Source: an uncultured Clostridia bacterium | Lineage (GTDB): Bacteria > UBA6262 > WVXT01 | DNA: 63,564 nucleotides | Reading direction: 5' to 3' | Assembly: GCA_964345635.1 (NCBI GenBank) | Contig: CAYFRM010000040.1 | Span: 1-63,564 of the forward strand | In this document: one piece after another, positions 1 through 22,108 of the stretch | Numbering within the stretch: the first letter of the stretch is position 1 | Layout: every line of letters begins with the position of its first letter | The notes under the pieces: model-generated | Database searches by the model: none | What the model was told of the DNA's origin: nothing | The model's input: the letters and a program-made list of their open reading frames with translations, nothing else | Made by a program: the position numbers and the translations under genes

Positions 1-21
1 CTAATTGGCAAATTATGAAGT

Positions 22-98
22 GCCCTCGTAGCTCAGATGGATAGAGCAGCGGTTTCCTAAACCGCGTGTCGGGCGTTCGAATCGTCCCGGGGGCACCA
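22..98 (+). tRNA. tRNA-Arg (anticodon CCT, reads AGG), 3' CCA encoded
   Basis: Hand-folded cloverleaf. Acceptor GCCCTCG/CGGGGGC (one G-U). D arm GCTC-AGATGGATA-GAGC. Anticodon stem GCGGT/ACCGC with loop TTCCTAA. Variable loop GTGTC. T arm GGGCG-TTCGAAT-CGTCC. Discriminator A plus CCA. Confidence 0.9.
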
Positions 99-125
99 GA
101 AAAACCTTGTCTGTTAGAATTTTAA

Positions 126-782
126 ATGATTGACCTTCACACGCATTCATTTTTTTCTGATGGTTCGTTAATTCCTTCGGAACTCGTCTTCCGCGCCAAG
201 AATAAGGGTTACGAAGCAATAGCTATTACCGACCATATTGATATGTCTAATCTCAATCTCGTAATTCCGGAGATTGTCAAGGTCTCTTCAATTCTCACTA
301 TTGAATATGAAATAGAGGTTCTTCCGGGAGCGGAACTGACTTATGTTCCTCCTAATTTGATCCCCCGGGTTGTTGAGGAATGTAGAGCGCTGGGAGCAAA
401 AATTATCCTGGTGCACGGAGAAACCACTGTTGAACCTGTGCCCCCGGGCACAAACCGGGCTGCCCTGGAAAGCAGAATAGATATACTTTCCCATCCGGGA
501 AAGATAAGTAGCGAGGAAGTAGACCTGGCAAAGGAAAACAACGTGCTCCTGGAAATTACTTCCCGCCAGGGACACTCTTTAACTAATGAACACGTGGGGA
601 GCCTGGCGAAGAAGAGGGAAGCAAACTTAATTCTTAACACTGATACGCACGAACCGGAGGACTTGATTACTGACGAGCAGGCTTTGGAAGTGGTTAACAA
701 AGCAGGAATGGCGAAGGCAGATCTGGATCTTATGTGGAAAAACGCCAGGTCATTAATTAGCAAAGCACTTAGAGGAGCTTGA
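126..782 (+). CDS. PHP-domain metal-dependent phosphoesterase (histidinol-phosphatase/TrpH-like)
   Basis: 218 aa. N-terminal DLHTHSFFSDG (HxH) and AITDHID motifs are typical of PHP domains. Confidence 0.8.
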   Translation: MIDLHTHSFFSDGSLIPSELVFRAKNKGYEAIAITDHIDMSNLNLVIPEIVKVSSILTIEYEIEVLPGAELTYVPPNLIPRVVEECRALGAKIILVHGETTVEPVPPGTNRAALESRIDILSHPGKISSEEVDLAKENNVLLEITSRQGHSLTNEHVGSLAKKREANLILNTDTHEPEDLITDEQALEVVNKAGMAKADLDLMWKNARSLISKALRGA

Positions 783-1448
783 ATGCCTCGTAGATGGGTA
801 AAAGAAGAGCTTAAAAGGGACCGTTTAGCAAGCTGGGTGGAGAAGTCGGTTAACTGGGTCAATGAGAATAAAGAGAACGCTATAATTGGCGGAATAGTTA
901 TCCTCGCCATAGCAATCTTTATTCCTTTCTCATTGTCTCGCCGGGCCAGGATGAACGAACAGGCATATAGCCTTCTGGCGAGAGGGCAACAGGAAGCTTT
1001 TAATAATCAGCTGGATAAGGCTATCTCTTTCTATGACCAGGCATTGAGACACTCTGGCTCAAAGGCGATCCCCTTAGTTCTTCTGTATAAAGGTAATACT
1101 CTTTATAAAATGGAGAAGTATAGCGAAGCTACATCTGTTTACAGAAGATACCTGAATAAATACGAAACCAGAAAGTTCACTCCCGAAGTCCTGATAAGCC
1201 TGGGCAATAGTCTGGAACAGGAAGGTAAGTTTGAGGAAGCTAAAGAAATTTACCGGAAATTTCTAGACGGGTTTCCGGACCATTATCTTTCGCCGGGGAT
1301 CTACCAGGGGCTGGGAAGATGCTATGAGAAACTGGGACAGAAAGACGAGGCAATTAGAACGTACCAGCAGATTTCCCAATTCTACTCCGGCACGGTCTGG
1401 CAAGATATGGCTGAGGCGAAAATAAAAGCGTTGTCGCCTGCGCCGTGA
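783..1448 (+). CDS. Membrane-anchored TPR-repeat protein
   Basis: 221 aa. The ATG directly abuts the upstream stop. One N-terminal TM helix (AIIGGIVILAIAIFIPF) is followed by TPR-like repeats (YfgM/YbgF-like layout). Confidence 0.7.
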   Translation: MPRRWVKEELKRDRLASWVEKSVNWVNENKENAIIGGIVILAIAIFIPFSLSRRARMNEQAYSLLARGQQEAFNNQLDKAISFYDQALRHSGSKAIPLVLLYKGNTLYKMEKYSEATSVYRRYLNKYETRKFTPEVLISLGNSLEQEGKFEEAKEIYRKFLDGFPDHYLSPGIYQGLGRCYEKLGQKDEAIRTYQQISQFYSGTVWQDMAEAKIKALSPAP

Positions 1449-1566
1449 ATGCAACATAAGTTAGATTTTTCCGAGAGGAGAATTCAAGTTTTTTCTTGAC
1501 TTTTTCCTCTTTTTCTTATAAGGTATCCTAAAATATATACCGTCATTGCGAACAAGGAGAGAGTGT

Positions 1567-2748
1567 GTGAAACGAACAATTATACCGGTTCTTCTGATGA
1601 CTCTTATCCTTTACATACTTCCCCGGATTGGTCTTGCCGGCGTGAGAGTGGGAGAAGAGGTGAGGATAAGAATGGTCCCGGTAAGCAATGAAGACGAGAG
1701 TTACGTCTATCAGAGGACGAGATTATTGATGGAAGGAGTATTGGCAGAGGGAGTTACCATCGGGATAAAGGTACAATCGAGAGGCTTCTGGGGCGTGGAT
1801 AGTTCCACAGTAACCATCGAGGGATTAACGCGCCGGAACATGTTGCCCTGGATTGAAAATGCCTACTTAAAAGCTGATGAATTATTTGGCCTTCCGTTGT
1901 ACCTGGCTCTGGGAAGACAGCCCCTGTTATACGGAGACGGGTTATTGGTAGATGATAACGCGTCAGGTTACGATGCCATTAAATTATCGGGCATCCTGCC
2001 CTGGCAGGTCGATTGCGAACTAATCATGCTAAAACCGACAGAGGCCAGCGGGGTTAGCCCTGATAACTGGAAAGAGAATAACGCTTACGGACTATTCGTT
2101 AAGAGAAAGTGGAAAAGGATTACTCCTCAGGTTTCTGGTTTCTGGCAGAGAGATCGAACTATCGGTGTGGAGAAGAACTTTCTCGGTTTCCATGTCAACG
2201 GAAGACTGGGAAAGGAAGTAGATTATCGGGGTGGACTAATACTTCAATCGGGAAAGGGGGGAGGAAGGGATTATAAAGGTGTGGCTTATATATTAGGCGG
2301 AGACTTTGAAGCCGATACGCGATTTGGTAAAGGCATGCTTGCCTGTGAATATCTCGCGGGCAGCGGAGAAATAACACCGATTACGGGAAAAGATGAAAAT
2401 TTCTTTTCCGACTACGCTCACCTGTCCGAGGAAGATTACGGGGAGTATTACTTAGAGAATAGAAGCGTGGTGAGGCAGGGAGATACGGATTATGCAATTA
2501 CTAACTTGAAACTATTTAAATTGGGATTGGCTGTATTTCCCCTGCCGGAATTGAAAACCGGACTCAACTATTATATATACAATTCTTATAGTCCCAAGGG
2601 CTCCATCGGAGATGAGGTAGACATCTCCGTTAAGTACTATTATTCAGAAAATCTTTCATTCCGCCTGGTGTATGGCATATTTATGGCGGGAAAGATTGCT
2701 GAGGATAGCGCGAATAAAGTTCTGGGGGAGGTGATGGTAAAATTTTAG
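1567..2748 (+). CDS. Outer-membrane beta-barrel protein (porin / alginate-export-like, family untested)
   Basis: ORF 1546..2748. GTG at 1567 is preferred because AAGGAG lies 8 nt upstream. Hydrophobic signal-like N-terminus, G/Y-rich alternating strand pattern, and a C-terminal ...VMVKF aromatic end typical of OM barrels. Confidence 0.6.
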   Translation: MKRTIIPVLLMTLILYILPRIGLAGVRVGEEVRIRMVPVSNEDESYVYQRTRLLMEGVLAEGVTIGIKVQSRGFWGVDSSTVTIEGLTRRNMLPWIENAYLKADELFGLPLYLALGRQPLLYGDGLLVDDNASGYDAIKLSGILPWQVDCELIMLKPTEASGVSPDNWKENNAYGLFVKRKWKRITPQVSGFWQRDRTIGVEKNFLGFHVNGRLGKEVDYRGGLILQSGKGGGRDYKGVAYILGGDFEADTRFGKGMLACEYLAGSGEITPITGKDENFFSDYAHLSEEDYGEYYLENRSVVRQGDTDYAITNLKLFKLGLAVFPLPELKTGLNYYIYNSYSPKGSIGDEVDISVKYYYSENLSFRLVYGIFMAGKIAEDSANKVLGEVMVKF

Positions 2749-2806
2749 TACTGGCCACAAGATTATCCTTGTGGATAAACGAAGGTACCAAATCAAAGGA
2801 GGTAAA

Positions 2807-3325
2807 ATGAAAAAATTAGTAATCGGTCTGGTAACATTAAGTATTCTTTTCTGCTTGCCCCTTAAGGGAGAAGCAGTTAGTCTGAAAAATAGATTGGGTG
2901 TCGGTTTTTCTGCTCTTTCACCACTGGATGGCTGGTCCTTCAGGTATTGGCTGACGGATAAATTTGCCGTGAACCCGGTTATCGGCTTTCATCTGGAGAC
3001 GGATAATAACCAATTTCTTCTGGGAGGAAGAGCCCTCTATAAAGTACAGGATGAGAAGAGTCTGAACGTATATTTGGGCGGAGAAGTCGGCGTAGATTTA
3101 AGACAGAACGCAGATGATAATTTTTCTATAGGACCCTTTGCCGGAGTAGAGTATTTTATGATGCAGCTACCCAACCTGGGTCTGGGAGCGGAAATCGGCG
3201 CCTATTATGAAAGCGCAGCTTCGGCTTTCGCCACGGCCTATGGCCGGCTCGTAGTACATTACTATTTTGGTGGCTCTGAAAAGGCCAAAAAGCCTGCCAA
3301 AAAGAAGAGTAGTAAAAAGAAGTAA
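2807..3325 (+). CDS. Small outer-membrane beta-barrel protein with Lys-rich C-terminal tail
   Basis: ORF 2771..3325. ATG 2807 is preceded by AAAGGAGG. Signal peptide MKKLVIGLVTLSILFCLPLKGEA, amphipathic strands, and a beta-signal-like VVHYYF followed by GGSEKAKKPAKKKSSKKK. Confidence 0.6.
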   Translation: MKKLVIGLVTLSILFCLPLKGEAVSLKNRLGVGFSALSPLDGWSFRYWLTDKFAVNPVIGFHLETDNNQFLLGGRALYKVQDEKSLNVYLGGEVGVDLRQNADDNFSIGPFAGVEYFMMQLPNLGLGAEIGAYYESAASAFATAYGRLVVHYYFGGSEKAKKPAKKKSSKKK

Positions 3326-3327
3326 GA

Positions 3328-5529
3328 ATGCCTCAAAATAATGTTCTCCATATTTCCTTCTTATGGCATATGCACCAGCCATATTATAAGGACCTCCTGG
3401 AAAATAGATTTGTCCTTCCCTGGGTAAGGCTCCACGCGATCAAGGACTACTATGATATGGTGGCCTACCTGGACGATTTTCCCAAGATTCATCTAAATTT
3501 CAATCTTGTTCCTTCCCTGATAGACCAGATAAACGATTACGCCCAGAACAATATAACCGACCAGTATCTGGACGTCACTTTGAAACCGGCCAATAAACTG
3601 TCCCCGGAAGAGAGAGTCTTTATTCTCCAGAACTTTTTTACGGCAAACTGGGAAAATATGATTAAGCCTTTCCCCCGTTACTGGGATCTCCTGTCCAAGA
3701 GGGGAAGGTATGTGGCCAGCAAAGAACTAAAAGATATTCAGAGAAGGTTCAGCACGTATGACTTTTTGGATTTACAGGTGCTTTTCAACTTATGTTGGAT
3801 TGACCCTTACATAAGAAGGCAGGACCGCGAACTGGGAGAATTGGAAAAGAAAGGGAAGGGATTCACCGAGGAAGACAAGAGATTGGTCATAGATAAACAA
3901 CTGGGAATTATGAAGAAAATCATCGGCAAGTATAGAGAAAAACAGGAACAGGGACAGATTGAAATTTCGGTTACTCCTTACTACCATCCCATCTTGCCTC
4001 TATTGGTTGACGTTGAGGCGGCAAAGATGGCCACTCCCGAAATCGCCCTGCCCAGAGAAGAGTTTCGCCACCAAGAAGATGCCAAGACTCAGATTGAACT
4101 GGCGGTGGCCTGTTACGAAAAATTCTTCGGCCGAAGACCAAAGGGAATGTGGCCCGCCGAGGGTGCGGTTTCAGAAGCAATCGTGCCTTTAATTTCCCGT
4201 GCAGGCATAGACTGGATTGCCACTGACGAGGATATTTTAGCATCTTCAATAGGCGATTCTGCCCACAAGGCGGATATACTCTACAAACCGTATCGGTTTA
4301 ACGTGGACAGTAGTTCGGTGAGAATTGTTTTCCGAAATAGGAAACTATCCGACCTGGTTGGTTTCACCTATGCCAGGGTCCCGCCTAATGAGGCAGTGAG
4401 ACATTTTACCGAGGAACTTCACAATATTCATAAGAGAGTAAGCCACTTCCCCGGGCCCCATCTGGTGACCATTATACTCGACGGAGAGAACTGCTGGGAG
4501 TATTATAAGAACGATGGATGGGATTTTCTCAAAGTACTTTATCAAGCGTTAAGTGATGATCCGTTATTAGAATCGACAACGATCGGTAAATTCATAGAAA
4601 ATTACCCGCAGCCTGTCTCCCTGCCCAGATTATGGAGCGGCTCCTGGATAAACGGCAATTTTGGCGTGTGGATCGGACACGAGGAGGATAATCTCTCCTG
4701 GGATTATCTCGCCAGGACGCGCAAAATGTTGGCCCATTTCGAAAAAAGACACCCCGAAAAACAGCCGCAGGAGATACAGAAAGCCAAAGAGGGAATATAT
4801 ATTGCCGAAGGCAGCGACTGGAACTGGTGGTACGGAGACGAACATCGCTCTGCCAATAATGTTGCTTTCGATAATCTTTATCGAAAGCACCTGATGAACG
4901 TTTATACTTCCCTCGGTGAAAGAGTGCCGGACTGGCTGCACATTGCCATTTCCGGCCTTGAGAAGCCCTGCCCCAAACGCGAACCCGCTGATTTCATAAA
5001 CCCTATATTGGACGGTGAAGTAACCGATTATTTCGAATGGCAGGGCGCGGGACAATACGATGTCTCCGAGACGATAGGGCCGATGCATCGTCGGGGAAAC
5101 ATTGTCAAGAGTTTCTACTATGGATTCGACCTGAACAATCTGTATCTGCGCATCGACGCGAATATGGAACTGTCCTATGAAAATTTAAAAGACCTCACAA
5201 TAAAAATCAATTTCTTTAAGGATTCGCCCCAACAGGCGAGAATTCAAATGGTCCGGAAGGGAAATCTTGCTCTTTCTCTTTTTGATATAGTCCAGGTAGA
5301 GCACAGGGAGAATTATCAAAAGTTGAAAGATTTGACTTCTGTAAGCTGCAAGAAAATTATAGAATTGAGTATACCTTTCGTCGATTTGAGAGCCAAAGTC
5401 GACCAGGCAATAGAGATTGTAGTCGTTTTGGAGCGTAACGACGTGGAACTGGAAAGATGGCCTTCGCACGGCACGATAAGTTTTTTTGTACCGGGAGAAG
5501 ATTTTTCGCTCCGCTACTGGTCGGTTTGA
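3328..5529 (+). CDS. Glycoside hydrolase family 57 (alpha-amylase / alpha-glucan-active enzyme)
   Basis: 733 aa. GH57 signature regions are present: HMHQPYY, EISVTPYYHPILPLL, WPAEGAVSE (nucleophile Glu region) and ILDGENCWEYY (acid/base Asp region). No signal peptide. Confidence 0.85.
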   Translation: MPQNNVLHISFLWHMHQPYYKDLLENRFVLPWVRLHAIKDYYDMVAYLDDFPKIHLNFNLVPSLIDQINDYAQNNITDQYLDVTLKPANKLSPEERVFILQNFFTANWENMIKPFPRYWDLLSKRGRYVASKELKDIQRRFSTYDFLDLQVLFNLCWIDPYIRRQDRELGELEKKGKGFTEEDKRLVIDKQLGIMKKIIGKYREKQEQGQIEISVTPYYHPILPLLVDVEAAKMATPEIALPREEFRHQEDAKTQIELAVACYEKFFGRRPKGMWPAEGAVSEAIVPLISRAGIDWIATDEDILASSIGDSAHKADILYKPYRFNVDSSSVRIVFRNRKLSDLVGFTYARVPPNEAVRHFTEELHNIHKRVSHFPGPHLVTIILDGENCWEYYKNDGWDFLKVLYQALSDDPLLESTTIGKFIENYPQPVSLPRLWSGSWINGNFGVWIGHEEDNLSWDYLARTRKMLAHFEKRHPEKQPQEIQKAKEGIYIAEGSDWNWWYGDEHRSANNVAFDNLYRKHLMNVYTSLGERVPDWLHIAISGLEKPCPKREPADFINPILDGEVTDYFEWQGAGQYDVSETIGPMHRRGNIVKSFYYGFDLNNLYLRIDANMELSYENLKDLTIKINFFKDSPQQARIQMVRKGNLALSLFDIVQVEHRENYQKLKDLTSVSCKKIIELSIPFVDLRAKVDQAIEIVVVLERNDVELERWPSHGTISFFVPGEDFSLRYWSV

Positions 5530-5530
5530 A

Positions 5531-5593
5531 ATCTGTAATCTGTAATCTGTAATTTGTAATCTGTAATCTGTAATCTGTAATTTCAAATTTGTA
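5531..5593 (+). repeat. Tandem heptamer array, 9 units of ATCTGTA/ATTTGTA/ATTTCAA (two 28-bp super-units)
   Basis: Read directly: (atctgta)3 atttgta (atctgta)3 atttcaa atttgta. It starts 2 nt after the GH57 stop codon. Confidence 0.95.
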
Positions 5594-5615
5594 GTGTAGG
5601 GCTTTATGCCCGTAA
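5591..5615 (+). repeat. GTAG-headed REP-like unit GTAGTGTAGGGCTTTATGCCCGTAA
   Basis: GTAG head followed by a small GGGC/GCCC hairpin. Related units occur at 8614-8622, 38161-38305 and 60107-60192. Confidence 0.7.
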
Positions 5616-5634
5616 AGTTAAGGAGGTGAGAATT

Positions 5635-5835
5635 ATGTCAAGTTTGGCCTTCTGGCTTGTCTTGATCCTTCTGGCAATACTCGTGATCATCGCCGTGGTA
5701 TTGGCTCTCAAAGAGTTCCGAAAGAACAAGAAAATTGGCAGTCTACTTGTCAATTACATCCTTTTAGTCGTGCTCGCGATAATCCTGCTGAAACTACTGT
5801 TCGCTGTTTCTACCCTTATGGCACTCCATTTTTAA
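5635..5835 (+). CDS. Small two-TM membrane protein (hypothetical)
   Basis: ORF 5626..5835. ATG 5635 is preceded by AAGGAGG. 66 aa with two hydrophobic helices separated by KEFRKNKK. Confidence 0.5.
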   Translation: MSSLAFWLVLILLAILVIIAVVLALKEFRKNKKIGSLLVNYILLVVLAIILLKLLFAVSTLMALHF

Positions 5836-5872
5836 GCCAAAATAACCTATTCAACAACCCATAGACCTGAAC

Positions 5873-5908
5873 AAGAGGCTAAATTTTGCGTTTTAAGGCC
5901 TCTTTTTT
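5873..5908 (+). terminator. Possible intrinsic terminator after the small membrane-protein gene
   Basis: 7-bp stem AAGAGGC/GCCTCTT (5873-5879 / 5898-5904) with an 18-nt loop, running into a T tract (5903-5908). The large loop makes it weak. Confidence 0.35.
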
Positions 5909-6026
5909 GGAAAAGCATGTTACAGGTTCCTGTCTTCCTGTTTTTTGCGCCATTTTGGCCTGCACTATTAAAAAACGCATACACGGCGCCCCATTTCATC
6001 CCGGGACTCCACAAGTGGCTTCCACC

Positions 6027-6224
6027 ATGGAAAAAGAACTGCAACAACTCAAAGAACTCCACCGCTTCTACCTGTACCATGATTACAAGACCGGGGAAAT
6101 AGCCAGGGAGATGGGAGTCTCAAGAAGAACAGTCCAGCGCTGGTTGAGCGGAAAGTCCCGGCCCAGCGAGAAAAAGCTGAACCAGTTAGGGAAATTACTT
6201 AATAAGAAAAGACGAAAGACATAG
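6027..6224 (+). CDS. Small HTH-domain protein (transposase/resolvase-type helix-turn-helix)
   Basis: ORF 5886..6224. The ATG at 6027 gives 65 aa containing GEIAREMGVSRRTVQRWL, a classic HTH. The upstream part of the ORF looks non-coding. Confidence 0.5.
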   Translation: MEKELQQLKELHRFYLYHDYKTGEIAREMGVSRRTVQRWLSGKSRPSEKKLNQLGKLLNKKRRKT

Positions 6225-6258
6225 ACCCGCCGAAGTTTCCCGCCCTGGCTGTCGCACA

Positions 6259-6286
6259 AGTACATATAATCAATATTATGTTAACT
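6259..6286 (+). other. dif: Candidate dif (XerC/XerD chromosome-dimer resolution) site
   Basis: AGTACATATAA-TCAATA-TTATGTTAACT. The right arm matches E. coli dif (TTATGTTAAAT) and B. subtilis dif (TTATGTAAACT) at 10/11 each. It lies in an AT-rich 300-bp gap at the convergent strand switch. Confidence 0.45.
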
Positions 6287-6530
6287 TCACGATAAAACAT
6301 CCGCATTAACTAACTTATTAAGATTATAACGTATAACCATACATTACAGGCATAAACGGAACGAATTTAATAGCTTACTTTAAATTTAGCCAAAATCGGC
6401 CTGAAAATCTCCTTTCTTTAAGGAAATTTTTACTCACGGGAGAAATTATTTCTTCCTGGGAGGACTTTTCGGGAAGGTGAGAGTATTTTGTTGGGGAGAA
6501 TGAGGAGGCTTCCCCTGGTAAACAATCGGA

Positions 6531-6746
6531 TTACTCGCCCAGACCTCCGGCCTTCTCCAGGCAGGTACTGCAGGATTGCAGGATCTCTTCCTTTTGCAGC
6601 TCGTACTCTTTCCTTATCCTCTGGATCATATCGGTTCTTCCAGAGGATATGGCGAAGCAGCAGGAAAGGCAGGTATTTTTATTTAATAGCGGGCACCTGA
6701 TTGTCTTCTCTACCTCTTTTTGGCAGATTGCACACTCTTCTGGCAT
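6531..6746 (-). CDS. Small Cys-rich (8 Cys, two CxxC) putative zinc-binding protein
   Basis: 71 aa: MPEECAICQ...CPLL..CLSCC...CSTC. GAGGGGGA Shine-Dalgarno (SD) sequence 6-7 nt before the ATG, and its own promoter-like element upstream. Confidence 0.45.
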   Translation of the reverse strand: MPEECAICQKEVEKTIRCPLLNKNTCLSCCFAISSGRTDMIQRIRKEYELQKEEILQSCSTCLEKAGGLGE

Positions 6747-6789
6747 AGCTTTCCCCCTCTTGGGGCCTTTTGTTTCTCGCCTCTGGAAT

Positions 6790-6819
6790 ATTTTATTATT
6801 TTACCATAAAAATGGTCAA
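6790..6819 (-). promoter_or_regulatory. sigma70-like promoter for the Cys-rich small gene
   Basis: On the - strand: TTGACC (6819-6814), 18-nt spacer, TAAAAT (6795-6790). Confidence 0.4.
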
Positions 6820-6921
6820 AATGCACGAAAAATATGACTCTTGTATCTCTACTTGCAGAAAAAGTATTCACCGGGCAAGATTTCCCTCCCGGGCCGTTAA
6901 AATATAACTCGTGATGGGATT

Positions 6922-8559
6922 CTAGGCCCGTTTTACCTTCCCGGCGACTATTCCCCCCTCCCTGACCATAAAAATGGCCAGAATGAGCAAAATCACGCCG
7001 ATTATCGCTAACAGGTAGTTCTGATTCCTGATAAATCCACGCACCTGGTATATCAGGGCTCCCGTGGTAGTAAGCAGAACAAAAATTCCCGGATATATCG
7101 TATATTTTGTGGGTTTTTTCATCGCCCAGAGATAAGAAGTAACTACCAGAAGAGCCAATGCCGCCACCAGTTGATTGGAAGCCCCGAAAATTGGCCAGAT
7201 TGCCTTCCAATTGCCAAATGCCAAGTATCCGGCACAGAAGATGATGACTGCCGTGGAAAAATAACGGTTCTGGAAAATTTTCCACTTCAAACCTTCGCCA
7301 AATAACTCTTCTGTTATATAGCGGTTAATTCTTGTGCCGGTATCCAAGGTGGTCATTACAAAGCTGTTAAGCATTACCATAGCCACCAGCGGCCCAAATG
7401 TGGCCCCCAGAAGAGGCGCTGCTATCCGGCCAAATCCCCGGGCAAAGGTCACAATCCAGTTCCCTCCCTTAATCAATTCCGGATAGACCAGTCCCTCCCT
7501 TCCCGCTCCGCCCGTCCAATAAAGACCGGCTGCCACAGCAATGAGAGCCAGGCTCGCCAGAATACCCTCCAGTATCATTCCCCCGTACGCCACCTTCCTC
7601 CCATCTCTCTCGTTTGTCAATTGCTTGGACGTTGTTCCGCTGGCAATCAAGGAATGGAATCCGGAGATTGCTCCACAGGCAACGATGACGAACAACATCG
7701 GCCAGAGAGTCCCCTGAGCGCTGGACCACTGCACAAGGGCGGGAGTGTGCATCCTGGGATGGGAAAAGAATAGTCCCAAATAGCCGAAAATTAGTCCGAA
7801 AAACAGGATAAAAGTGGATAGATAATCCCGCGGTTGAAGGAGAATATTTACCGGGGTAATAGAAGCAATAAATGCGTACCCTAACAATATGACCATCCAG
7901 ATTTTTGCGCTGCCTTCTATCCCCAGGGATACAGGAAAATGGTAGCCCAGAACAAGAAGCCCTGCCAGCAAAATCAGACCTGCCAACGTGGCTACCACCT
8001 GGTTGATTTTCCATTTGTAAATCATAAGCCCCGTGAGAATGGCAACCAGAATGAGGCCAAAAGTAGGTATCACTATCCTCGGTTCGTTCACTAAAGTCGT
8101 GCTGGTGACAGCGGCAAAGACTGCCACCACCAGAATAAGAGTCAGCCACAAGAAAGTAGCAAACAACATTTTTGCCCGGCGGCTCATTGTCGACTCGGCA
8201 ACATCGCCGATCGACCTGCCCTTGTGTCTTAGAGAGCTCATCAAACAGGAGAAATCATGAACTCCCCCGATAAATATGGACCCTATTACTATCCATATTA
8301 GAACCGGCACCCAGCCCCAGATAGCCACCGCAATTACCGGCCCGATGATAGGCCCCGCCCCGGCAATGCTGGCAAAATGGTGCCCGAAAAGAATTGTCCA
8401 GTGCTTTGCCGGCACATAATCTATCCCGTCATTATTCTCCACTGCCGGCGTCTTTCTCCGCGGGTCTACATCCCAGAGTTTCTCCATAATCTTTCCATAA
8501 AATCTATACCCGCACCATAAGAGCAGAATCGCAAAAACAGCTACCGTTAAGGAGTTCAT
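6922..8559 (-). CDS. cstA: Carbon starvation protein A (peptide/pyruvate transporter family)
   Basis: 545 aa polytopic membrane protein. N-terminus ...LLWCGYRFYGK and overall CstA-like helix and Gly-rich pattern. Confidence 0.9.
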   Translation of the reverse strand: MNSLTVAVFAILLLWCGYRFYGKIMEKLWDVDPRRKTPAVENNDGIDYVPAKHWTILFGHHFASIAGAGPIIGPVIAVAIWGWVPVLIWIVIGSIFIGGVHDFSCLMSSLRHKGRSIGDVAESTMSRRAKMLFATFLWLTLILVVAVFAAVTSTTLVNEPRIVIPTFGLILVAILTGLMIYKWKINQVVATLAGLILLAGLLVLGYHFPVSLGIEGSAKIWMVILLGYAFIASITPVNILLQPRDYLSTFILFFGLIFGYLGLFFSHPRMHTPALVQWSSAQGTLWPMLFVIVACGAISGFHSLIASGTTSKQLTNERDGRKVAYGGMILEGILASLALIAVAAGLYWTGGAGREGLVYPELIKGGNWIVTFARGFGRIAAPLLGATFGPLVAMVMLNSFVMTTLDTGTRINRYITEELFGEGLKWKIFQNRYFSTAVIIFCAGYLAFGNWKAIWPIFGASNQLVAALALLVVTSYLWAMKKPTKYTIYPGIFVLLTTTGALIYQVRGFIRNQNYLLAIIGVILLILAIFMVREGGIVAGKVKRA

Positions 8560-8584
8560 TTATATACCTTCCATAATTTCTATA

Positions 8585-8613
8585 TTTATAGTAAATTTAT
8601 GATTTCTTGTCAA
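8585..8613 (-). promoter_or_regulatory. sigma70 promoter of cstA
   Basis: On the - strand: TTGACA (8613-8608), 17-nt spacer, TATAAA (8590-8585), then a GGAAGG SD before the ATG at 8559. Confidence 0.6.
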
Positions 8614-8657
8614 CTACACTAAACAGATTACAAATTTCAAATTACAGATTACAAACC
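8614..8657 (-). repeat. Heptad array (5 units AATCTGT/AATTTGT/AATTTGA) plus truncated GTAGTGTAG unit
   Basis: The - strand reads ggtttgt aatctgt aatttga aatttgt aatctgt ttAGTGTAG. It starts immediately after the stop of the 946-aa gene. Confidence 0.85.
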
Positions 8658-11498
8658 TTAGAAGGTGGGTCCCAGGGAAAAATAGAATTTCCCGCTGAAT
8701 TTATCCGTCCGCCAGCCGTAATCTAACCTGAGCGTAAAGGGAAACATCTGTATGAGAAAAGTGTTTATTCTCAACCCTATTCCCACGGTGTTTTTTATAT
8801 CTGAAATCGTTTTTATCTCCTCAGGTTCGTTCCAGGCTGCGCCGGAATCGGTAAAAAGGGCAAGTTGCAGGTTCTTCAGATATATCTCCGGCCAGAGAAG
8901 TCTGAACCTCCAATTTATTTCCGGAAAGAGCATAAACCTCCACTCAGCGTTAACCAGGGCTAACCTGCTCCCCGAGGAAGCACCCTTGGAAAGCCCGCGT
9001 AGCTTGCTTTCTCCCCCCAAAGAGGTCTCTGTCCTATCCTTTCCCTGGGCCAGCCTTCCCAGAAATCTAAATGCCAAAACATTGCGTTCGGATAGCTTGA
9101 AATATTTCCTGGCATCGAGGATATACTTTGTATAATCGAAGTCGCCATCAAGCGCTTTGAAAGCTTGATAGACCGTCAAATTGACCCGGCTACCGCTCAT
9201 TATGTCCACAATCTTTCCCTGGGTTGTATCCCTTACCAGAGAAAGAGCAACTCCGTTCTCCCGGGTTCTGATATTGTCTCCATTCCACTCTCGCTTGGAC
9301 TCGGTAATAAGTTCCAGGTCTACTCGCCGGAAACGGTCGAAAGGATAACTGACCATAATCTCTTCGGCAAATTTGCTGCTACGGACCGTATCATCATCGT
9401 CGTCAGATTCGCGTCGCATCTTTCCGTAAACAAAAAAGCCTAAACTGGGTCGCCACCTTTGATAAATATAGCCTAATTGATAGGTTAGCCAGTCATATTC
9501 CGAGGCATACTCTAAATAGGCAATCATCCCGTGGTTTCCCAGCATATCACTTGCCTGCCAGTATCCGGCTGTGTACAGACCTTCTGTTGTGGAGTAAAAG
9601 AGCAAAGGAAAGATTAGATCCGTGGATGCCCTGAATCTATAGGGATGAATCCTGGTGACCGGAGAGGGTTGAGGACTTATGATTGGCCCGGTGGGCTCTG
9701 GTGGCAGTTGGGCTATCGCTATTTCTTCTTTCCCTCCCTTCAATTTTCTTGCAAACACCTCTTCCCGGGGAAATTCTCCCCGGTGGATGTTCATCTCCCC
9801 ATTCCGATAGGAAACGAAAAGTAGATGTTCTCCGTCGGAAGATATGTCGGGAGTAAAGACGCCCACTTTGACGTCGGTCAATTGGAAAATGTCCAATTTC
9901 AGATTCTCATCCCGAATCTCTTCTTCCCGGCCCCTCACGTCCATGCGGTAAATGTTAAAAATTCCCTCGTAATCGCCGATGTAGACGATACTATTGCCGT
10001 CGGGCGTCCAGCAAGGATCCATCTCATCATCGGGGGTGGAAGTCAATCGGGTAATGGCGAGGCTTTCCAGGTCCAGAAGAAAGAGCTCTTTCTGTCTTTC
10101 CCTTTCGGAGACGTAGACAATCTTCTTATCGTCGGGAGAAAAGACAGGATAACTGTCGTCGAACTCGTCGGTGGTTAACTTCTCCAGGTTCTTACCGTTG
10201 GTATCCACCAGGTAGAGGTCGTTAACGCCCCCTTCCATCCCCACAAAAACAATCTTATCCCCCTGGCGGGAAAAACAGGGCGATTTTATGACTTTTACGG
10301 GCAGGCGAAGTCTCTTTAATTTGTTTTTCTTGAGATTAATTATGTACAGGTAATCTTTCAGTTTTTTCTCTCCTGCAAAAACAATCTTTTCTCCGTCCGG
10401 GGACCAGGAAAGAGCGTGTCCGTCATAATGGATGACATCCAGACTCCTTCCGATCCGCGATTTTAGAATCGATTCCTGGCTCGTTCCGTCTACGTTCATC
10501 ACAAACAGGTCACCGTATCCGTTACGGGTAGAAACGAAAGCTACTCTCTTTCCGTCGGGTGAGAAGACCGGATTGGAATTAAACTCGGCATTCTCTGTAA
10601 GTTTCTTTCCGTAAGTTTCCGCTTCTTCTTTTCCCTCCGCTTCCATCGTATATTTTTCTTTCATATATTTCTGCCATCTTATGTCAAAACTGCCTAGGTC
10701 AGTATCGATTGTGCGCATAAAAACCCCGTTTATTTCCAGGCTCTCCCGCAGATTCTTAATCAATTTGGGAACCTTATCTTCCCCGTACTCCTCTGCCAGA
10801 AAACTGATTGCGCTGTGTCCCTCCTGGTAGGCTAACAAAATCTGGTGCATTCTCAAATGATTGAAACTGTGTAACTTACCCAGAGGAATTATCGTATCGG
10901 AAATAGCGACGTCTCTCAAAAGCATATGGTCGTAAGTTTCCCATTCTTCTTTACTCTCATATTCCGACAATCCTTCGATTATCCACAAAGGATAGAAGAC
11001 AAATCTCATCAGGCTCGCCGATTTCCAGAATCCACCGTACCAGATGTTAAAAATTGCGATATGGGTGAACTCATGAGTAATCACATGTTCTAACTCTTTA
11101 TCCGAACCGGTTACGGGAATTACAAACCTGTTCTTGTAGGGCTCGGAGAATCCACCGACCCCCTCGCCAGTATCGGCAATGTTATTCTGCTCAAAGTGGT
11201 TATGGGTCATATATAAGAAGAAAGGCGTTTTCTTTTCTATACTGATATTTAAGTCGCCGGTAACTTTTTCGTAAGCTTTTTCCAGCATCTTGCTCACTTT
11301 GGGAATCAGGTGCCTTTCTTCGGGATAATGGTAAATCTGGAAATGTTCGGTCTCGGCAATATGCCAGGTGTGTTGATCGACGATTACCTTATTCTTACCG
11401 AAAGAGACGTCCGGGTAGGCAGGAGAATTTCTCAAAAAAAGGAGGCAAAATGAGAGCCAAACAAATAAAAGTGATTTCTTGTTCAATCTATTCCTCAT
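8658..11498 (-). CDS. Outer-membrane fusion protein: peptidase-MA-like HExxH domain + six PD40/TolB-like propeller repeats + Omp85-type C-terminal barrel
   Basis: 946 aa with a signal peptide. Carries HVITHEFTHIA...WIIEGLSEYE. Six repeats of the SPDG-x-(I/V)-x-(F/Y) type (e.g. PVFSPDGKRVAFVS, LSWSPDGEKIVFAG). C-terminus ...LRLDYGWRTD...YFSLGPTF. Confidence 0.8.
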   Translation of the reverse strand: MRNRLNKKSLLFVWLSFCLLFLRNSPAYPDVSFGKNKVIVDQHTWHIAETEHFQIYHYPEERHLIPKVSKMLEKAYEKVTGDLNISIEKKTPFFLYMTHNHFEQNNIADTGEGVGGFSEPYKNRFVIPVTGSDKELEHVITHEFTHIAIFNIWYGGFWKSASLMRFVFYPLWIIEGLSEYESKEEWETYDHMLLRDVAISDTIIPLGKLHSFNHLRMHQILLAYQEGHSAISFLAEEYGEDKVPKLIKNLRESLEINGVFMRTIDTDLGSFDIRWQKYMKEKYTMEAEGKEEAETYGKKLTENAEFNSNPVFSPDGKRVAFVSTRNGYGDLFVMNVDGTSQESILKSRIGRSLDVIHYDGHALSWSPDGEKIVFAGEKKLKDYLYIINLKKNKLKRLRLPVKVIKSPCFSRQGDKIVFVGMEGGVNDLYLVDTNGKNLEKLTTDEFDDSYPVFSPDDKKIVYVSERERQKELFLLDLESLAITRLTSTPDDEMDPCWTPDGNSIVYIGDYEGIFNIYRMDVRGREEEIRDENLKLDIFQLTDVKVGVFTPDISSDGEHLLFVSYRNGEMNIHRGEFPREEVFARKLKGGKEEIAIAQLPPEPTGPIISPQPSPVTRIHPYRFRASTDLIFPLLFYSTTEGLYTAGYWQASDMLGNHGMIAYLEYASEYDWLTYQLGYIYQRWRPSLGFFVYGKMRRESDDDDDTVRSSKFAEEIMVSYPFDRFRRVDLELITESKREWNGDNIRTRENGVALSLVRDTTQGKIVDIMSGSRVNLTVYQAFKALDGDFDYTKYILDARKYFKLSERNVLAFRFLGRLAQGKDRTETSLGGESKLRGLSKGASSGSRLALVNAEWRFMLFPEINWRFRLLWPEIYLKNLQLALFTDSGAAWNEPEEIKTISDIKNTVGIGLRINTFLIQMFPFTLRLDYGWRTDKFSGKFYFSLGPTF

Positions 11499-13206
11499 CT
11501 TCCGAATTGTTCATTTTTTCACTGATTATTTCGCCCAGAGTGGCTCCGGGAATTTCCTGTTCAATATACTTTTCCATTTCCGCTCTTTCCTGTGCCTTTA
11601 TATATTCCTTGATGCTCAAATCGATTATCATCTGCTGGGGATCGGCTCTAATAATTCTTGCCCAGACTCTATCTCCCACCCTTAAAACTTCTTTTATATC
11701 TTTAACTTTCCCCTTAGCCGCCTGGGAAATATGGATTAGCCCTTTTATACCCGGTTCCAATTCTACAAAAGCTCCGAAATTGGTGAGATGAACCACTTTT
11801 CCCTGAACATTGCTCCCCACAAAATATTTCCCATATGGGTTTTTCGATTTCTGTTTCAGTCCCAGAGATATTTTTTCAGCCTTGACATTTACCTCCAGAA
11901 CTACTGCTTCCACTTGATTTCCCACCTTGAGCACCTGTCCCGGGTGTCTCAATCTCTTTGTCCAGGAAATATCAGAAACATGAATCATCCCCTCAATTCC
12001 CTCTTCCAATCTGACAAAAGCCCCAAAGGGTGCCAGATGCGTAACGGTTCCCGTGAGTCTTGTTCCCGGCGGATACTTCTCTTTTGCCTGAGCCCAGGGA
12101 TTAGGCTGTATCTGTTTCAGCCCGAGGGATAATTTCCTCTTTTCTTCATCTATGCTGAGCACTCTGACTCTTACCACGTCTCCCACTTTCAATACTTCGC
12201 GGGGGTGCCTTATTTTCTCCGTCCAGGACATCTCGGAGACGTGAATCAGGCCTTCTATCCCGGGCTCCAGCTCGACAAACGCACCATAGGGGAGAATACC
12301 GGTTACTTTTCCCGCGGGAGTCGAATCAACAGGATATTTCTCCCTGATATTTTCCCAGGGATGGGGCTCCATCTGTTTCAGTCCTAATGAAATCTGCTCT
12401 TTTTCCCGGTTGAACGCGAGAACTTTTACGTCCATCTGTTCGCCCACCTTCAATGCATCTTCCACTCTCTCCAGGCGACCCCACGTTATATCGCCTATGT
12501 GCAGCAGTCCATCAATTCCGCCCAGATCAATAAATGCACCAAACCTGGTCATATTCTTCACAGTACCTTTCAATACGTCTCCCACGGTTATTCTGTTTAA
12601 CAGCTCTTCCCTCTTTTTCTTTACCTCATCCTCAATTACCAATCTCCAGGAGACGACGATATTCCTCTTTGGTTCGAATTCGATTACTCTTAACGGAACC
12701 ACCTGGCCGACGACACTATCCAGGTCCTTTACCGGGGGATAACCAATCTGAGAGGCAGGCATAAAAGCCTCGGCAAGACCTTTTCCTTCTTCCAGAATAG
12801 AATCAGGCCCTCCCAGATCCACAATCATACCTCCTTTAATCTTCCTGACTATCTTGCCCAGTATTTCGCTCTGCGTGGTATAGGCATCGCGAATTCTATC
12901 CCAGGTCCTTACCATTTCTGCCTTCTTCAATGATATAACGGGTCGGCCGTAGGCGTCTTCTCTTTTTTCCAAAAAGACCTCTATTTTATCGCCAGTTTTT
13001 ACCTTTAATTTCCCTGAAGGAGTGGCTACGTCTTCTTTCTTGAGAATTCCCTCGGTTTTCAAACCCACGTCGACCAATAAAGATTCGCCTTTCACCTGGA
13101 TAACTTTCCCGGTAACGATTTTCCCTTCCTTGATTTTGTCAAGGTCTTTTAATAACTTTTCCATCCTGGAGTCATGATGATTTTTTTCTTTTGGTGTATC
13201 CGTCAT
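11488..13206 (-). CDS. rpsA: 30S ribosomal protein S1
   Basis: 572 aa with six S1/OB repeats (G.V......GAFV.L..GI.GL.H.S). Confidence 0.95.
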   Translation of the reverse strand: MTDTPKEKNHHDSRMEKLLKDLDKIKEGKIVTGKVIQVKGESLLVDVGLKTEGILKKEDVATPSGKLKVKTGDKIEVFLEKREDAYGRPVISLKKAEMVRTWDRIRDAYTTQSEILGKIVRKIKGGMIVDLGGPDSILEEGKGLAEAFMPASQIGYPPVKDLDSVVGQVVPLRVIEFEPKRNIVVSWRLVIEDEVKKKREELLNRITVGDVLKGTVKNMTRFGAFIDLGGIDGLLHIGDITWGRLERVEDALKVGEQMDVKVLAFNREKEQISLGLKQMEPHPWENIREKYPVDSTPAGKVTGILPYGAFVELEPGIEGLIHVSEMSWTEKIRHPREVLKVGDVVRVRVLSIDEEKRKLSLGLKQIQPNPWAQAKEKYPPGTRLTGTVTHLAPFGAFVRLEEGIEGMIHVSDISWTKRLRHPGQVLKVGNQVEAVVLEVNVKAEKISLGLKQKSKNPYGKYFVGSNVQGKVVHLTNFGAFVELEPGIKGLIHISQAAKGKVKDIKEVLRVGDRVWARIIRADPQQMIIDLSIKEYIKAQERAEMEKYIEQEIPGATLGEIISEKMNNSEDEE

Positions 13207-14076
13207 CTAACGCTCCGGTGCATCGGAACTACCCCTCAACAGGCCTTTTACTACACTTTTGATTATCCAATCGGGAGTGGAAGTGCCGGAAGTTATTCCT
13301 ACTCCTCTTTTCTTACTGAACCAACCGGGTCTCAATTCCTCCGCCGATTCTATATGGTAAGCACGGGTAACTTTCTTGCAGATATTGTAAAGTCTGGTAG
13401 TATTGGCGCTATTCTTACCGCCAATTACAATCATAAGATTTGCTCTCTTTGCCAGTCCTTTCGCCTCTTTCTGACGCTGGGAAGTCTCTTTGCAAATAGT
13501 GTTATGAATTTTCGGGTTTTTAGTCTTCTTCTTTAATCTTTTCACAATCTTCTCGAAGCTTTCCACCGCTTGCGTAGTCTGGCTGATGACTCCTATTTTT
13601 TTGTCTGTCTTGATCTTTTCCACATCTCGGGGAGTCTCTACCACGGAAGCTTCACCGTCGGCAAAAGAAAGTAAGGAAATTACTTCCGGATGAGATTTCT
13701 GCCCCACTATTACTACATGGTAGCCGTTCTCATGTAATCTCTTTGCCAGTAATTGAGCCCGCTTGACGAACGGGCAGGTAGCATCTATTAACCTGAGCCG
13801 CCTTTTCTCTATTCTCTTCAACACTGTTTGAGGCAAGCCGTGAGAAGGCACAATGAGAGTTCCTGCTTTTATCCGGCCCAGCCGGGAGATAGTTCTTACC
13901 CCCAGCCTTTCCAGGCGCTCGACTTCCTGAGGATTATGAATCAGTGGCCCTAAAGTATACACCGGGGTTGTGATGGTCCTCTTTCTATTACCCCTCGTCG
14001 GTATACTCTGCGCCAGGGAGATAGCCCTCTTTACTCCCGAACAAAACCCCATCTTTCTGGTAAAAATAAGTCTCAT
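13207..14076 (-). CDS. ispH: 4-hydroxy-3-methylbut-2-enyl diphosphate reductase
   Basis: 289 aa. MGFCSGVKRAI start, conserved Cys/His pattern of LytB. The stop abuts the rpsA start. Confidence 0.9.
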   Translation of the reverse strand: MRLIFTRKMGFCSGVKRAISLAQSIPTRGNRKRTITTPVYTLGPLIHNPQEVERLERLGVRTISRLGRIKAGTLIVPSHGLPQTVLKRIEKRRLRLIDATCPFVKRAQLLAKRLHENGYHVVIVGQKSHPEVISLLSFADGEASVVETPRDVEKIKTDKKIGVISQTTQAVESFEKIVKRLKKKTKNPKIHNTICKETSQRQKEAKGLAKRANLMIVIGGKNSANTTRLYNICKKVTRAYHIESAEELRPGWFSKKRGVGITSGTSTPDWIIKSVVKGLLRGSSDAPER

Positions 14077-14090
14077 CTCGATTACAAATT

Positions 14091-14705
14091 TCAGATTTCA
14101 GCTTGATATCGGTATTGCCCTTCCCGGTCCAGCTCCATTATTCCTTCCATTACTCTGTGGGCGAAATCGCGGTAACGAGACTTTTCATTCTCGCCTTTTT
14201 CGTCTGTTCCGAAATATATCGGTGAGCCAAAGCGCACAATTACCCTGGGAAAATTTTTTGCTCTGTGAGTATTCACAACCAGAGTAGGAACGACGGGGAA
14301 TTTAGTCTTTTGCGCTATCCAGGCAACCCCGGGTTGAGGCGCTCTCAGGCGCCCTCCCTTTCCCCGTCCACCTTCGGGGAAGACCACCAGGGTCTTCTTT
14401 CCATTCAACACTCTAAGCGCCTTTTTAAAGGCGGCTACGTCCTGTTTCCCTCTATCCACGGGAAAAGTGTGTATCATCCTCAGGACCGTTCCGAAAACGG
14501 GGAACCGGAAGAGCTGTTTTTTTGCCATAAAGTATACCTGGTATCCACCAATTGCCACGCCCACCAGAGGGGGGTCCCAGTAACTGGCATGATTAGGAGC
14601 TATAATAACTCCACCTTTGGGAATATTTCTCCTTCCTTCAATGCGAAAACGGAACAGGATTTTGCCTATCAACCAGATTAGCCAATAACCCAAAACATAC
14701 AACAT
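14091..14705 (-). CDS. plsC: 1-acyl-sn-glycerol-3-phosphate acyltransferase
   Basis: 204 aa. NHASYWD (HxxxxD) and VFPEGGRG acyltransferase motifs. Confidence 0.85.
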   Translation of the reverse strand: MLYVLGYWLIWLIGKILFRFRIEGRRNIPKGGVIIAPNHASYWDPPLVGVAIGGYQVYFMAKKQLFRFPVFGTVLRMIHTFPVDRGKQDVAAFKKALRVLNGKKTLVVFPEGGRGKGGRLRAPQPGVAWIAQKTKFPVVPTLVVNTHRAKNFPRVIVRFGSPIYFGTDEKGENEKSRYRDFAHRVMEGIMELDREGQYRYQAEI

Positions 14706-14718
14706 AACTTACCCCCGC

Positions 14719-14735
14719 AAAAAAGTGACAGGTAC
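14719..14735 (+). repeat. Partial copy of the RAYT-flanking repeat (AAAAAAGTGACAGGTAC)
   Basis: Same 11-nt core GTGACAGGTAC as at 17585-17605. It lacks the 3' T arm. Located in the plsC-cmk gap. Confidence 0.7.
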
Positions 14736-14740
14736 AATAT

Positions 14741-15406
14741 TCATTCGATTCTTTTCAGGATAAACTCTACTACTTCTTTCTTGCTCATATCCGTGGAGTC
14801 TATGACTACAGCATCAGGAGCTATCTTCAAGGGAGCCACTCCCCGGGTGCGGTCGCGCCTGTCGCGAGAGCGAATCGCCTTTTCCAGCTCCGCCAGGTCC
14901 CCTTTCTCCCCTTTCGCTTTCAGTTCTCTGTATCTTCTCAAAGCCCTTTCTTTAAGTGACGCATCCAGATAGAACTTATAGTCTGCCCGGGGAAAGACTA
15001 CGGTGCCTATATCCCTGCCTTCCACTACAATTCCCCCCGAAGAACCCAGTCTCCTCTGAATTTTCACCAGCTCCTTCCTCACCTCAGGGATTGCAGCCAA
15101 GATGCTGGCTCCTTCAGTGACCCTTTTGTTCCTTATATTGTTGGTGACATCCTTTCCATCCAAATAGACCCTTGCCGTTCCCCCTTTACTCTTTAGCTCC
15201 ATCCTGCTATTTCTCACCATCCTGATCAATTCTCTCTTAGATTGCAGATCTATCTTTTTTCTAAATGCTTTCCAGCTTATTGCTCTATACATACCGCCCG
15301 TATCAATATAATTATAACCCAATTTTTTACTAACCATTCTGGCAATTGTTGTCTTCCCTGCCCCTGCTGGCCCGTCGATAGCAATAACCGCTCTTCTCTT
15401 CACCAA
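14741..15406 (-). CDS. cmk: Cytidylate kinase
   Basis: 221 aa. IAIDGPAGAGKTT P-loop and Cmk-like body. Confidence 0.95.
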   Translation of the reverse strand: MVKRRAVIAIDGPAGAGKTTIARMVSKKLGYNYIDTGGMYRAISWKAFRKKIDLQSKRELIRMVRNSRMELKSKGGTARVYLDGKDVTNNIRNKRVTEGASILAAIPEVRKELVKIQRRLGSSGGIVVEGRDIGTVVFPRADYKFYLDASLKERALRRYRELKAKGEKGDLAELEKAIRSRDRRDRTRGVAPLKIAPDAVVIDSTDMSKKEVVEFILKRIE

Positions 15407-15419
15407 ATTTCCACCATAC

Positions 15420-16706: not shown

Positions 16707-16708
16707 GT

Positions 16709-17608
16709 TTACGACCCGATTATTTTTTTTCTCGCCAGTCTACCTCTATTAAACAAGTCCTGAAGGTCTTTCTTTTTATTCTTTTCAATTGACTTTTTGA
16801 TTTTTCCCAGACGCTCTACCATTACCCTGATACTTTTTGAAATCGCTTTGCTATTGGACATACAGATATCTATCCACATTTCAGGACTGCTGTCTGCAAT
16901 TCTGGTCATATCCGAGATACTTCCCGCGATGATTCTACTGGCTCGCTGGTCTTTTTTACAAACCCTGCCTATAAGATTGGCTAATGTGGACGCCAGTACG
17001 TGGGGCAAGTGGCTCGTATATGCTACGAGATAATCGTGTTCTTCAGGTTTAAGCAAAAGAACTCTCGCTCCCATTCTTTTCCAGAGGTCTCCCACTACCT
17101 TAACCGCTCGTCGGTTATTCTTATCTGCCGGAGTCAGAACGCAGGTGGTGCCCGAGAAAATATCGGCCCTGGCATTTCTTACTCCTTGCTTCTCGGAACC
17201 TGCCATGGGGTGACCGCCGATGAAAGAAACCTCACCCCTTCTCCCTTTGCCGGCAGATTTTGCGAGAATCTCCCGGACTTCCTTAACCACTTTTTCCTTC
17301 GTGCTCCCTACGTCAGTTACAATGCAGCCATCTTTTAAATGGGGTAATATCCTCTTAACGATAAGTGGAATCTTGTCCACAGGCGCGGCAACCATAACTA
17401 TGTCCGAATCTTTGACCCCTCTGGCAAAATCGGTAGTGTAGCTATCAATGGCACCCAGTCTCTTTGCCTCTTTTAACTTGTGGATATGGCGACCGATTCC
17501 TACCACTTGCCGGGCGAGTCTCTTCTTTTTCAGAGCTAAACCGAAAGACCCTCCCATTAAACCCACGCCAATTATACTCACCTTAAAAAGTGACAGGTAC
17601 TTTTTCAT
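16709..17608 (-). CDS. tyrA: Prephenate dehydrogenase
   Basis: 299 aa. VSIIGVGLMGGSFGLAL Rossmann motif. The first 8 codons (MKKYLSLF) are encoded by the repeat at 17585-17605. Confidence 0.85.
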   Translation of the reverse strand: MKKYLSLFKVSIIGVGLMGGSFGLALKKKRLARQVVGIGRHIHKLKEAKRLGAIDSYTTDFARGVKDSDIVMVAAPVDKIPLIVKRILPHLKDGCIVTDVGSTKEKVVKEVREILAKSAGKGRRGEVSFIGGHPMAGSEKQGVRNARADIFSGTTCVLTPADKNNRRAVKVVGDLWKRMGARVLLLKPEEHDYLVAYTSHLPHVLASTLANLIGRVCKKDQRASRIIAGSISDMTRIADSSPEMWIDICMSNSKAISKSIRVMVERLGKIKKSIEKNKKKDLQDLFNRGRLARKKIIGS

Positions 17609-18350: not shown

Positions 18351-18367
18351 ATGTCACTTTTTTATCA

Positions 18368-20469: not shown

Positions 20470-20486
20470 TAAAGTATCCTCCCAAA

Positions 20487-22103: not shown

Positions 22104-22108
22104 TGTCT

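Follow-up and report, generated by a model that had tools for sequence, protein, structure and literature searches.

A probable chromosomal dif site at the replichore junction of an uncultured diderm bacterium

In the present study, we analysed a DNA stretch of 63,564 bp (the window), which is the whole of contig C40 of a MAG from an uncultured bacterium. This assembly (G000) is 93.8% complete and consists of 100 contigs of unknown order with a total of 1.63 Mb. The window encodes outer-membrane proteins of the Omp85 and alginate-export types, and the NCBI titles read 'Clostridia bacterium' or 'bacterium'. The GTDB phylum contains 12 species only, and the family under study comprises nine of them, G000 and eight relatives. 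At the left end of the contig lies a tRNA-Arg gene (CCT; 22-98, + strand), the only tRNA gene of the window. Further inward, a 28-mer with the sequence AGTACATATAATCAATATTATGTTAACT is found at 6259-6286 of the + strand, and its neighbours are a GH57 gene, a small HTH gene, a small Cys-rich ORF and cstA. The letters and coordinates given for this 28-mer in the preliminary description were exact on re-reading. It is intergenic, as no ORF of at least 80 aa covers it. The gap that holds it (6225-6530) had been described as A/T-rich and as the largest non-coding gap of the window. The composition is as described, with a GC content of 38.6% in the gap and 28% in 6259-6400 against 45.6% in the window, but the rank is not, since another gap (43206-43521, 316 nt) is 10 nt longer and the gap with the 28-mer is the second largest. 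The features discussed below are collected in Table 1.

Table 1. Features at and around the 28-mer, with positions in the window unless another locus is named
Feature	Position	Strand	Details
End of one replichore	1..6258	+	+ strand G-rich and coding-dominant (leading); six + ORFs, positive GC skew
HTH_3-type DNA-binding protein gene, 65 aa	6027..6224	+	Ends 34 bp before the 28-mer; generic Pfam, NCBIfam and PHROG HTH matches
Putative dif, left arm (XerC-binding by analogy)	6259..6269	+	AGTACATATAA; 7/11 vs E. coli and B. subtilis left arms
Putative dif, 6-bp central region	6270..6275	+	TCAATA; length of 6 constant, sequence varies among relatives
Putative dif, right arm (XerD-binding by analogy)	6276..6286	+	TTATGTTAACT; 10/11 vs E. 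coli and B. subtilis XerD arms
End of other replichore	6287..63564	-	- strand G-rich and coding-dominant (leading); all ORFs on -, GC skew negative throughout
Cys-rich ORF, 71 aa	6531..6746	-	Downstream of cstA; right boundary of the intergenic region
xerD, tyrosine recombinase, 300 aa	43522-44424	-	TIGR02225, 370.6 bits vs cut-off 329.6
ftsK, DNA translocase, 685 aa	48817-50874	-	Pfam FtsK_4TM, FtsK_alpha, FtsK_SpoIIIE, FtsK_gamma
Insertion near dif in relative G003	L016 7447-9604		Extra ORFs
Insertions near dif in relative G005	L020 6288-9509 and 10106-12372		Extra ORFs

The 28-mer is laid out as AGTACATATAA / TCAATA / TTATGTTAACT, that is, as 11+6+11 bp. For the match counts, we used the reference dif sequences printed by Kono et al (2011; PMC3025954). 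The counts that had been reported against E. coli dif were reproduced (left arm 7/11, spacer 4/6, right arm 10/11 and 21/28 in total), as was the 10/11 of the right arm against B. subtilis dif, to which the whole 28-mer is also identical at 21/28 positions. The right arm is near the TTATGTnAAnT consensus of experimentally defined dif sites. In addition, a dyad criterion for dif sites asks for more than four complementary pairs of positions 7-12 with positions 17-22 (PMC3025954), and five of the six pairs were read from the sequence of the 28-mer (8-21, 9-20, 10-19, 11-18 and 12-17). Over their full length, the arms are 8/11 palindromic.

The site is single in the assembly. No further copy of the 28-mer within 3 mismatches was found in the window, and none of 100 shuffles gave a match. 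The weight matrix used for the whole-assembly scan was made only from three published dif sites and is hence independent of this lineage. Among about 3.25 million positions on both strands of G000, the 28-mer ranked first with 21.0 bits, followed by matches of 18.2 and 17.6 bits. Such a scan had been proposed in the preliminary description, which named several equally good copies as an outcome that would speak against its reading; the best match was unique, and there are no such copies in G000, where the XerD-arm 11-mer TTATGTTAACT itself occurs once. An identity of 21/28 is reached by only two 28-mers of the assembly with E. coli dif and by only two with B. subtilis dif. The site at 6259-6286 is the only one that reaches this value for both, the others being C75:6516 (E. 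coli dif) and C27:3297 (B. subtilis dif). When a good XerD arm was combined with a palindromic left arm in the search, the 28-mer was again alone with its 8/11 palindromic positions, all others having 6/11 or fewer. The five runner-ups that were examined (C75:6516, C86:12836, C75:4406, C27:3297 and C74:4401) all lie within ORFs of 185-641 aa. Arrays of XerD half-sites were also sought in G000; TTATGTTAACT was found once and ATTATGTTAAC four times, with no array and no polarity.

The 28-mer coincides with the sole gene-strand switch on the contig. The convergence of transcription on this point, as previously described, was borne out by our ORF count: six ORFs of at least 90 aa lie on the + strand (126-6224), followed by about 47-49 ORFs, all on the - strand. 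The minus-strand ORFs of at least 90 aa (48 in our listing) span 6922 to 63564, and the 71-aa Cys-rich ORF is on the same strand. The cumulative GC skew, for which an extremum near 6.3 kb had been predicted, reaches its G-C maximum on the contig at 5647, about 0.6 kb from the 28-mer, and this maximum was the largest terminus-type switch when all contigs of G000 were compared. The origin-type counterpart is a cumulative minimum at position 7770 of contig C76, some 125 bp away from a DnaA-domain match (7895-8374). These two, the C76 minimum and the C40 maximum, are the largest internal skew switches of G000. Smaller terminus-type maxima on C99, C44 and C74 are short local inversions, and none of them has a credible dif candidate. 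The dnaA region of C76 (about 7770-8374) combines a divergent strand switch with the skew minimum and is a probable origin. A second DnaA-family match of equal score was seen at 2734-3216 of contig C10, in a 650-aa frame.

In the whole of G000, more than 92% of the ORFs of at least 100 aa lie on the G-rich strand of their own contig, many contigs reaching 100%, and the sign of the skew follows the dominant coding strand without exception on all contigs. Because the two are confounded by this co-orientation, we count skew and coding strand as one signal. The opposite switch is found at dnaA, and therefore the polarity tracks replication in this bacterium. The left arm of C40 is only 6.2 kb long, and the long-range picture was drawn from relatives. 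In the 91.5-kb contig C2 of relative G003, 60 consecutive + ORFs over 66 kb lead up to the site at 66,693 and are followed by - ORFs for 25 kb, with the cumulative G-C maximum at 65,951. In contig C2 of relative G008, the site (33,434) is followed by the maximum at 33,736. Thus, the distance between site and maximum is 0.3-0.75 kb in the three genomes (G000, G003 and G008). A dif site is regarded as a marker of the replichore junction, not necessarily as the exact base where the forks meet (PMC3025954). The 28-mer marks the terminus region because two replichores meet there.

The motif nnnAYAYATAA-N6-TTATGTTAACT is present in all nine species of the family, once in eight of them and twice in G001. 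The family site always lies between a converging PHP-TPR-porin-GH57 block on the + strand and a cstA-PD40/Omp85-S1 block on the - strand. The right arm TTATGTTAACT is invariant in the nine genomes; in the left arm, all nine have AYAYATAA as the inner part (ACATATAA in G000) and differ in the three outer bases. The spacers are TCAATA, TGTATA, TATTTA, TCTTTA, TGATTA and GAGATA, with the last two bases (TA) invariant, so that about 19 of the 28 columns are invariant across the family. In two relatives (G006 and G007), the 28-mer is intact although the left flank is unalignable there. A conserved XerD side and a variable XerC side have been reported as the pattern of dif in all phyla (PMC3025954), and the family site fits this pattern, its XerD arm being more conserved than its XerC arm. 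Conservation alone is not specific to the 28-mer, because other short blocks of the same intergenic region are also conserved. Furthermore, the core ATAA-N6-TTATGTTAA was no commoner than its reversed control in the genomes scanned, and only full 28-mers together with synteny were diagnostic. When relaxed patterns were applied to G009-G011, from the two remaining families of the phylum, the matches were ambiguous and no better than controls.

The second dif-like site of G001 (L026, contig C103, 3522-3549) reads TTCCCATATAA TTTAAA TTATGTTAACT. It is located at the extreme end of a 3.6-kb contig with ordinary genes (DUF3108, FMN oxidoreductase). Possible explanations are heterogeneity among strains, a break of the contig at dif or the presence of another Xer site. 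The gene content around the site also varies in the family, since extra ORFs are inserted on either side in G003 and G005 (Table 1). These insertions encode a methyltransferase-like protein, DUF6932, DUF481 and a TPR-PDZ protein, and phage and plasmid genes are absent from them. An insertion hotspot in the terminus region fits this variable gene content.

To place the site in a wider frame, the pattern AYAYATAA-N6-TTATGTTAACT was scanned across 185,579 species genomes. This gave 104 loci, 66 of them with usable flanks, and a +/- skew switch was found at the site in 18 of these 66 loci, 14 being outside the family. The loci with a switch include WOR-3, Melioribacter/Ignavibacteria, Peribacteria, Gracilibacteria, Pseudalkalibacillus, Fonticella and Clostridium estertheticum. 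The motif also recurs in many Paenibacillus, Clostridium and Brevibacillus genomes. Many of the Paenibacillus matches have no skew switch within 3 kb, and the motif alone is therefore no proof of dif. The pattern is nevertheless clearly a form of dif that is used in several other phyla. In the loci L063-L166 with a skew switch, the XerC arm was on the positive-skew side in 18 and on the opposite side in 3. This suggests that dif has a preferred orientation relative to the replichores, in a sample that was chosen by pattern and of which 4/18 come from the family under study. The G007 28-mer (AGTACATATAATGTATATTATGTTAACT) recurs unchanged in a Mycoplasmatota MAG (JAEIOE010000003.1, L155), and a site in a Bacilli MAG (L135) deviates from it by one base.

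The genes for the expected proteins are located in the same window. The placement of xerD and ftsK at 37-44 kb from the 28-mer agrees with our coordinates, which give 37.2-38.1 kb for xerD and 42.5-44.6 kb for ftsK. The xerD product scores 303 bits with the XerC model, lower than with its own model (Table 1), and has the Phage_integrase and SAM-like N-domains of Pfam. Among PDB entries, E. coli XerD (1a0p, E 2.6e-70) matches it best, and the catalytic positions R, K, H-x-x-R, H and Y of the two align. The gamma domain of FtsK (PF09397) was detected with 52.8-57.3 bits, over the cut-off. XerD is the sole tyrosine recombinase found in the G000 assembly, and xerC was sought across this 93.8% complete assembly and not found. 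In seven of the eight family relatives, there is a second paralogue, about 40% identical to XerD and best classified as XerC (TIGR02224, 336.8 bits). Its gene is located some 32 kb upstream of xerD, and the equivalent position in G000 is beyond the end of C40. The DNA 1.2 kb downstream of the relatives' xerC matches the first 273-303 bases of contig C2 of G000, with 100% identity to relative G004 over the 303 bp of C2:1-303. Because this downstream flank matches the very start of C2, the gene is placed in an assembly gap and not considered as lost; on these sequence matches, the absence of xerC from G000 points to a probable assembly gap.

A search for KOPS was made on 90 contig pieces oriented by skew, and 8-mers were ranked on two measures, their strand skew and their excess over the expectation of a Markov model. 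Numerous G-rich words in G000 had a skew of 90-97%, but KOPS-like octamers that are also over-represented were not found (z of 3.3 or less). The word GGGNAGGG is 76% skewed in G000. The skew of octamers is inseparable from the strand bias in this genome, because more than 92% of the genes are co-oriented.

Taken as a whole, the 28-mer is very probably the chromosomal dif, the single site of the terminus region at which a XerC/XerD heterotetramer would resolve chromosome dimers, as judged from its sequence and context. Its match to published sites, uniqueness, polarity switch and conservation, together with xerD and ftsK, support the earlier reading of a dimer resolution site and terminus. By homology with E. 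coli and B. subtilis, XerC would bind the variable left arm and XerD the invariant right arm, and strand exchange is predicted where the arms border on the 6-bp central region, with activation of the reaction by the gamma domain of septum-bound FtsK.

Other explanations of the 28-mer were weighed against this. As an imperfect palindrome 34 bp beyond the end of the HTH gene, it could be the operator of this adjacent 65-aa regulator, with a coincidental likeness to dif. Such a role would suit the partial palindrome, the pairing of gene and site in seven of the nine family genomes and the conservation of the TGTCGCAC flank in the same genomes. However, identical arms are kept in G006 and G007 without an adjacent HTH gene, and the site lies beyond the HTH stop codon, not in the HTH promoter. 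A 10/11 match to the XerD arms of E. coli and B. subtilis would be unexpected for an operator, and so would the recurrence at skew switches in unrelated phyla; we consider this explanation very unlikely. The palindrome has even less chance of being a mere A/T-rich coincidence in an ordinary gap between two convergent operons, an explanation that we regard as extremely improbable. The region is indeed A/T-rich (28-39% GC), its core ATAA-N6-TTATGTTAA is no commoner than the reversed control, and C75:6516 and C27:3297 each reach 21/28 to one published dif. Chance would nevertheless have to account for the top matrix match in G000, which is intergenic unlike the five runner-ups examined, and for about 19/28 columns invariant in nine species, two of them with unalignable flanks. 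It would also have to place the site within 1 kb of a terminus-type skew switch in three genomes (G000, G003 and G008).

The 28-mer could also be a Xer-type attachment or pseudo-dif site of an integrated element (IMEX-like), the working dif being in the unassembled part of the genome. About 6% of the G000 genome is missing, and a second dif-like site is present in G001. The neighbouring gene content varies, with the insertions in G003 and G005, and in G003 the HTH gene is duplicated around a cargo of about 2.2 kb. Against this, no second dif-like site was found in G000, and phage, plasmid and integrase genes were not found near the site. Moreover, a degenerate XerD arm and a longer central region are typical of IMEX sites (PMC3025954), whereas all nine species share an unchanged XerD arm and a 6-bp spacer at a single syntenic, skew-switching position. 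We therefore hold an element of this kind to be highly improbable, somewhat less so than chance and more so than an operator.

The DNA around the probable dif has conserved parts of its own. The HTH gene adjoins it in seven of the nine family genomes; of the remaining two, the gene was not found in G007, and G006 gave a marginal match only. In G003, the HTH gene is duplicated (L016:7561-7743 and 9762-9956) with 68% identity, and the cargo of about 2.2 kb between the copies contains a methyltransferase-like ORF and one other ORF. The short flank TGTCGCAC between the HTH gene and dif is conserved in the same genomes as the gene. As a polar repeated word it was negative, with six copies genome-wide and no polarity. 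On the XerD side, blocks of the intergenic DNA (6287-6530) are conserved in 8/8 aligned family genomes. One is a near-invariant box, TACTTTAAATTT, at 6376-6387, which is single-copy in the genome, and a looser block at about 6306-6325 has the consensus CTTAAACCAAATTATTAA. The gap was also searched for an RNA gene or terminator. Nothing in Rfam matched it with an E value up to 1, and it contains neither a terminator-like site nor a tRNA gene; RNAalifold predicted a weak hairpin on the + strand (-8.9 kcal/mol) and nothing on the - strand. At the right boundary, the 71-aa ORF has several CxxC-like pairs and is found in 9/9 family genomes with 73-94% identity. It had no family match in Pfam, NCBIfam or PHROG, and it is a real small gene. 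The HTH and Cys-rich genes near dif are specific to the family. The dif of this family is embedded in a fixed, lineage-specific module of the HTH gene, TGTCGCAC, dif, two XerD-side boxes and the Cys-rich gene. It seems unlikely, though somewhat less so than any of the other explanations of the 28-mer, that the terminus machinery includes some of these flanking elements as accessories, which might provide binding sites or a DNA-binding factor with a role in tuning Xer recombination or in organising the terminus.

Compared with known systems, the site is closest to the canonical ones. It shares with the E. coli dif/XerC-XerD/FtsK system the 11+6+11 bp layout, the XerD arm (10/11), the identity of the whole site (21/28) and the partial dyad symmetry. 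It is likewise a single copy at a GC-skew shift, with a 1a0p-like XerD and an FtsK that has the 4TM, alpha, motor and gamma parts. It differs in the left arm (7/11) and in the spacer, which is TCAATA here and TGTATA in E. coli (relative G007 has TGTATA). Unlike E. coli, no KOPS signal of the GGGNAGGG type was separable from the general strand bias here, and the present site comes from an uncultured diderm that belongs to a small GTDB phylum. The likeness to B. subtilis dif, where the recombinases are CodV and RipX, consists of the same 21/28 identity and 10/11 XerD arm, and the Firmicutes-type dif profile has been described as the best seed for many other phyla (PMC3025954). The Bacillota matches differ in that many have no skew switch within 3 kb, so that not all of them need be dif, and arrays of XerD half-sites (XDS-like) were not seen in G000. 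The sites in the Ignavibacteria/Melioribacter, WOR-3, Peribacteria and Gracilibacteria MAGs are alike in their arms (ACACATAA or ACATATAA, N6, TTATGTTAACT), in the +/- skew switch and in having the XerC arm on the positive-skew side, but they belong to other phyla and have no flanking genes in common with the present site.

The XerS/difSL, XerH/difH and archaeal XerA/dif systems also resolve dimers with a tyrosine recombinase at a terminus site, and they resemble G000 in that one recombinase gene was found there. The sites of such single-recombinase systems are atypical, with an 11-bp or a 6-10-bp centre, and often lie beside their own recombinase gene (PMC5357621). In contrast, the present site is a canonical 28-mer, its xerD is 37 kb off and the relatives carry a XerC/XerD pair. 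A single-recombinase Xer system, which the lone XerD had suggested, was rejected on the XerC-like paralogues of the relatives and the gap before C2.

The finding is that of an ordinary dif site, and it leaves the knowledge of Xer recombination unchanged; only the lineage-specific conserved neighbours and boxes around it are mildly unusual. With it, the Firmicutes-type dif consensus reaches into a further deep branch. For this little-known lineage of uncultured diderms, the 28-mer, very probably dif, offers a reliable landmark of the replichore junction by which contigs can be ordered and oriented. Considered jointly with the dnaA contig, it shows that the replicon of the lineage is of the classical bidirectional kind and that its genes are very strongly co-oriented.
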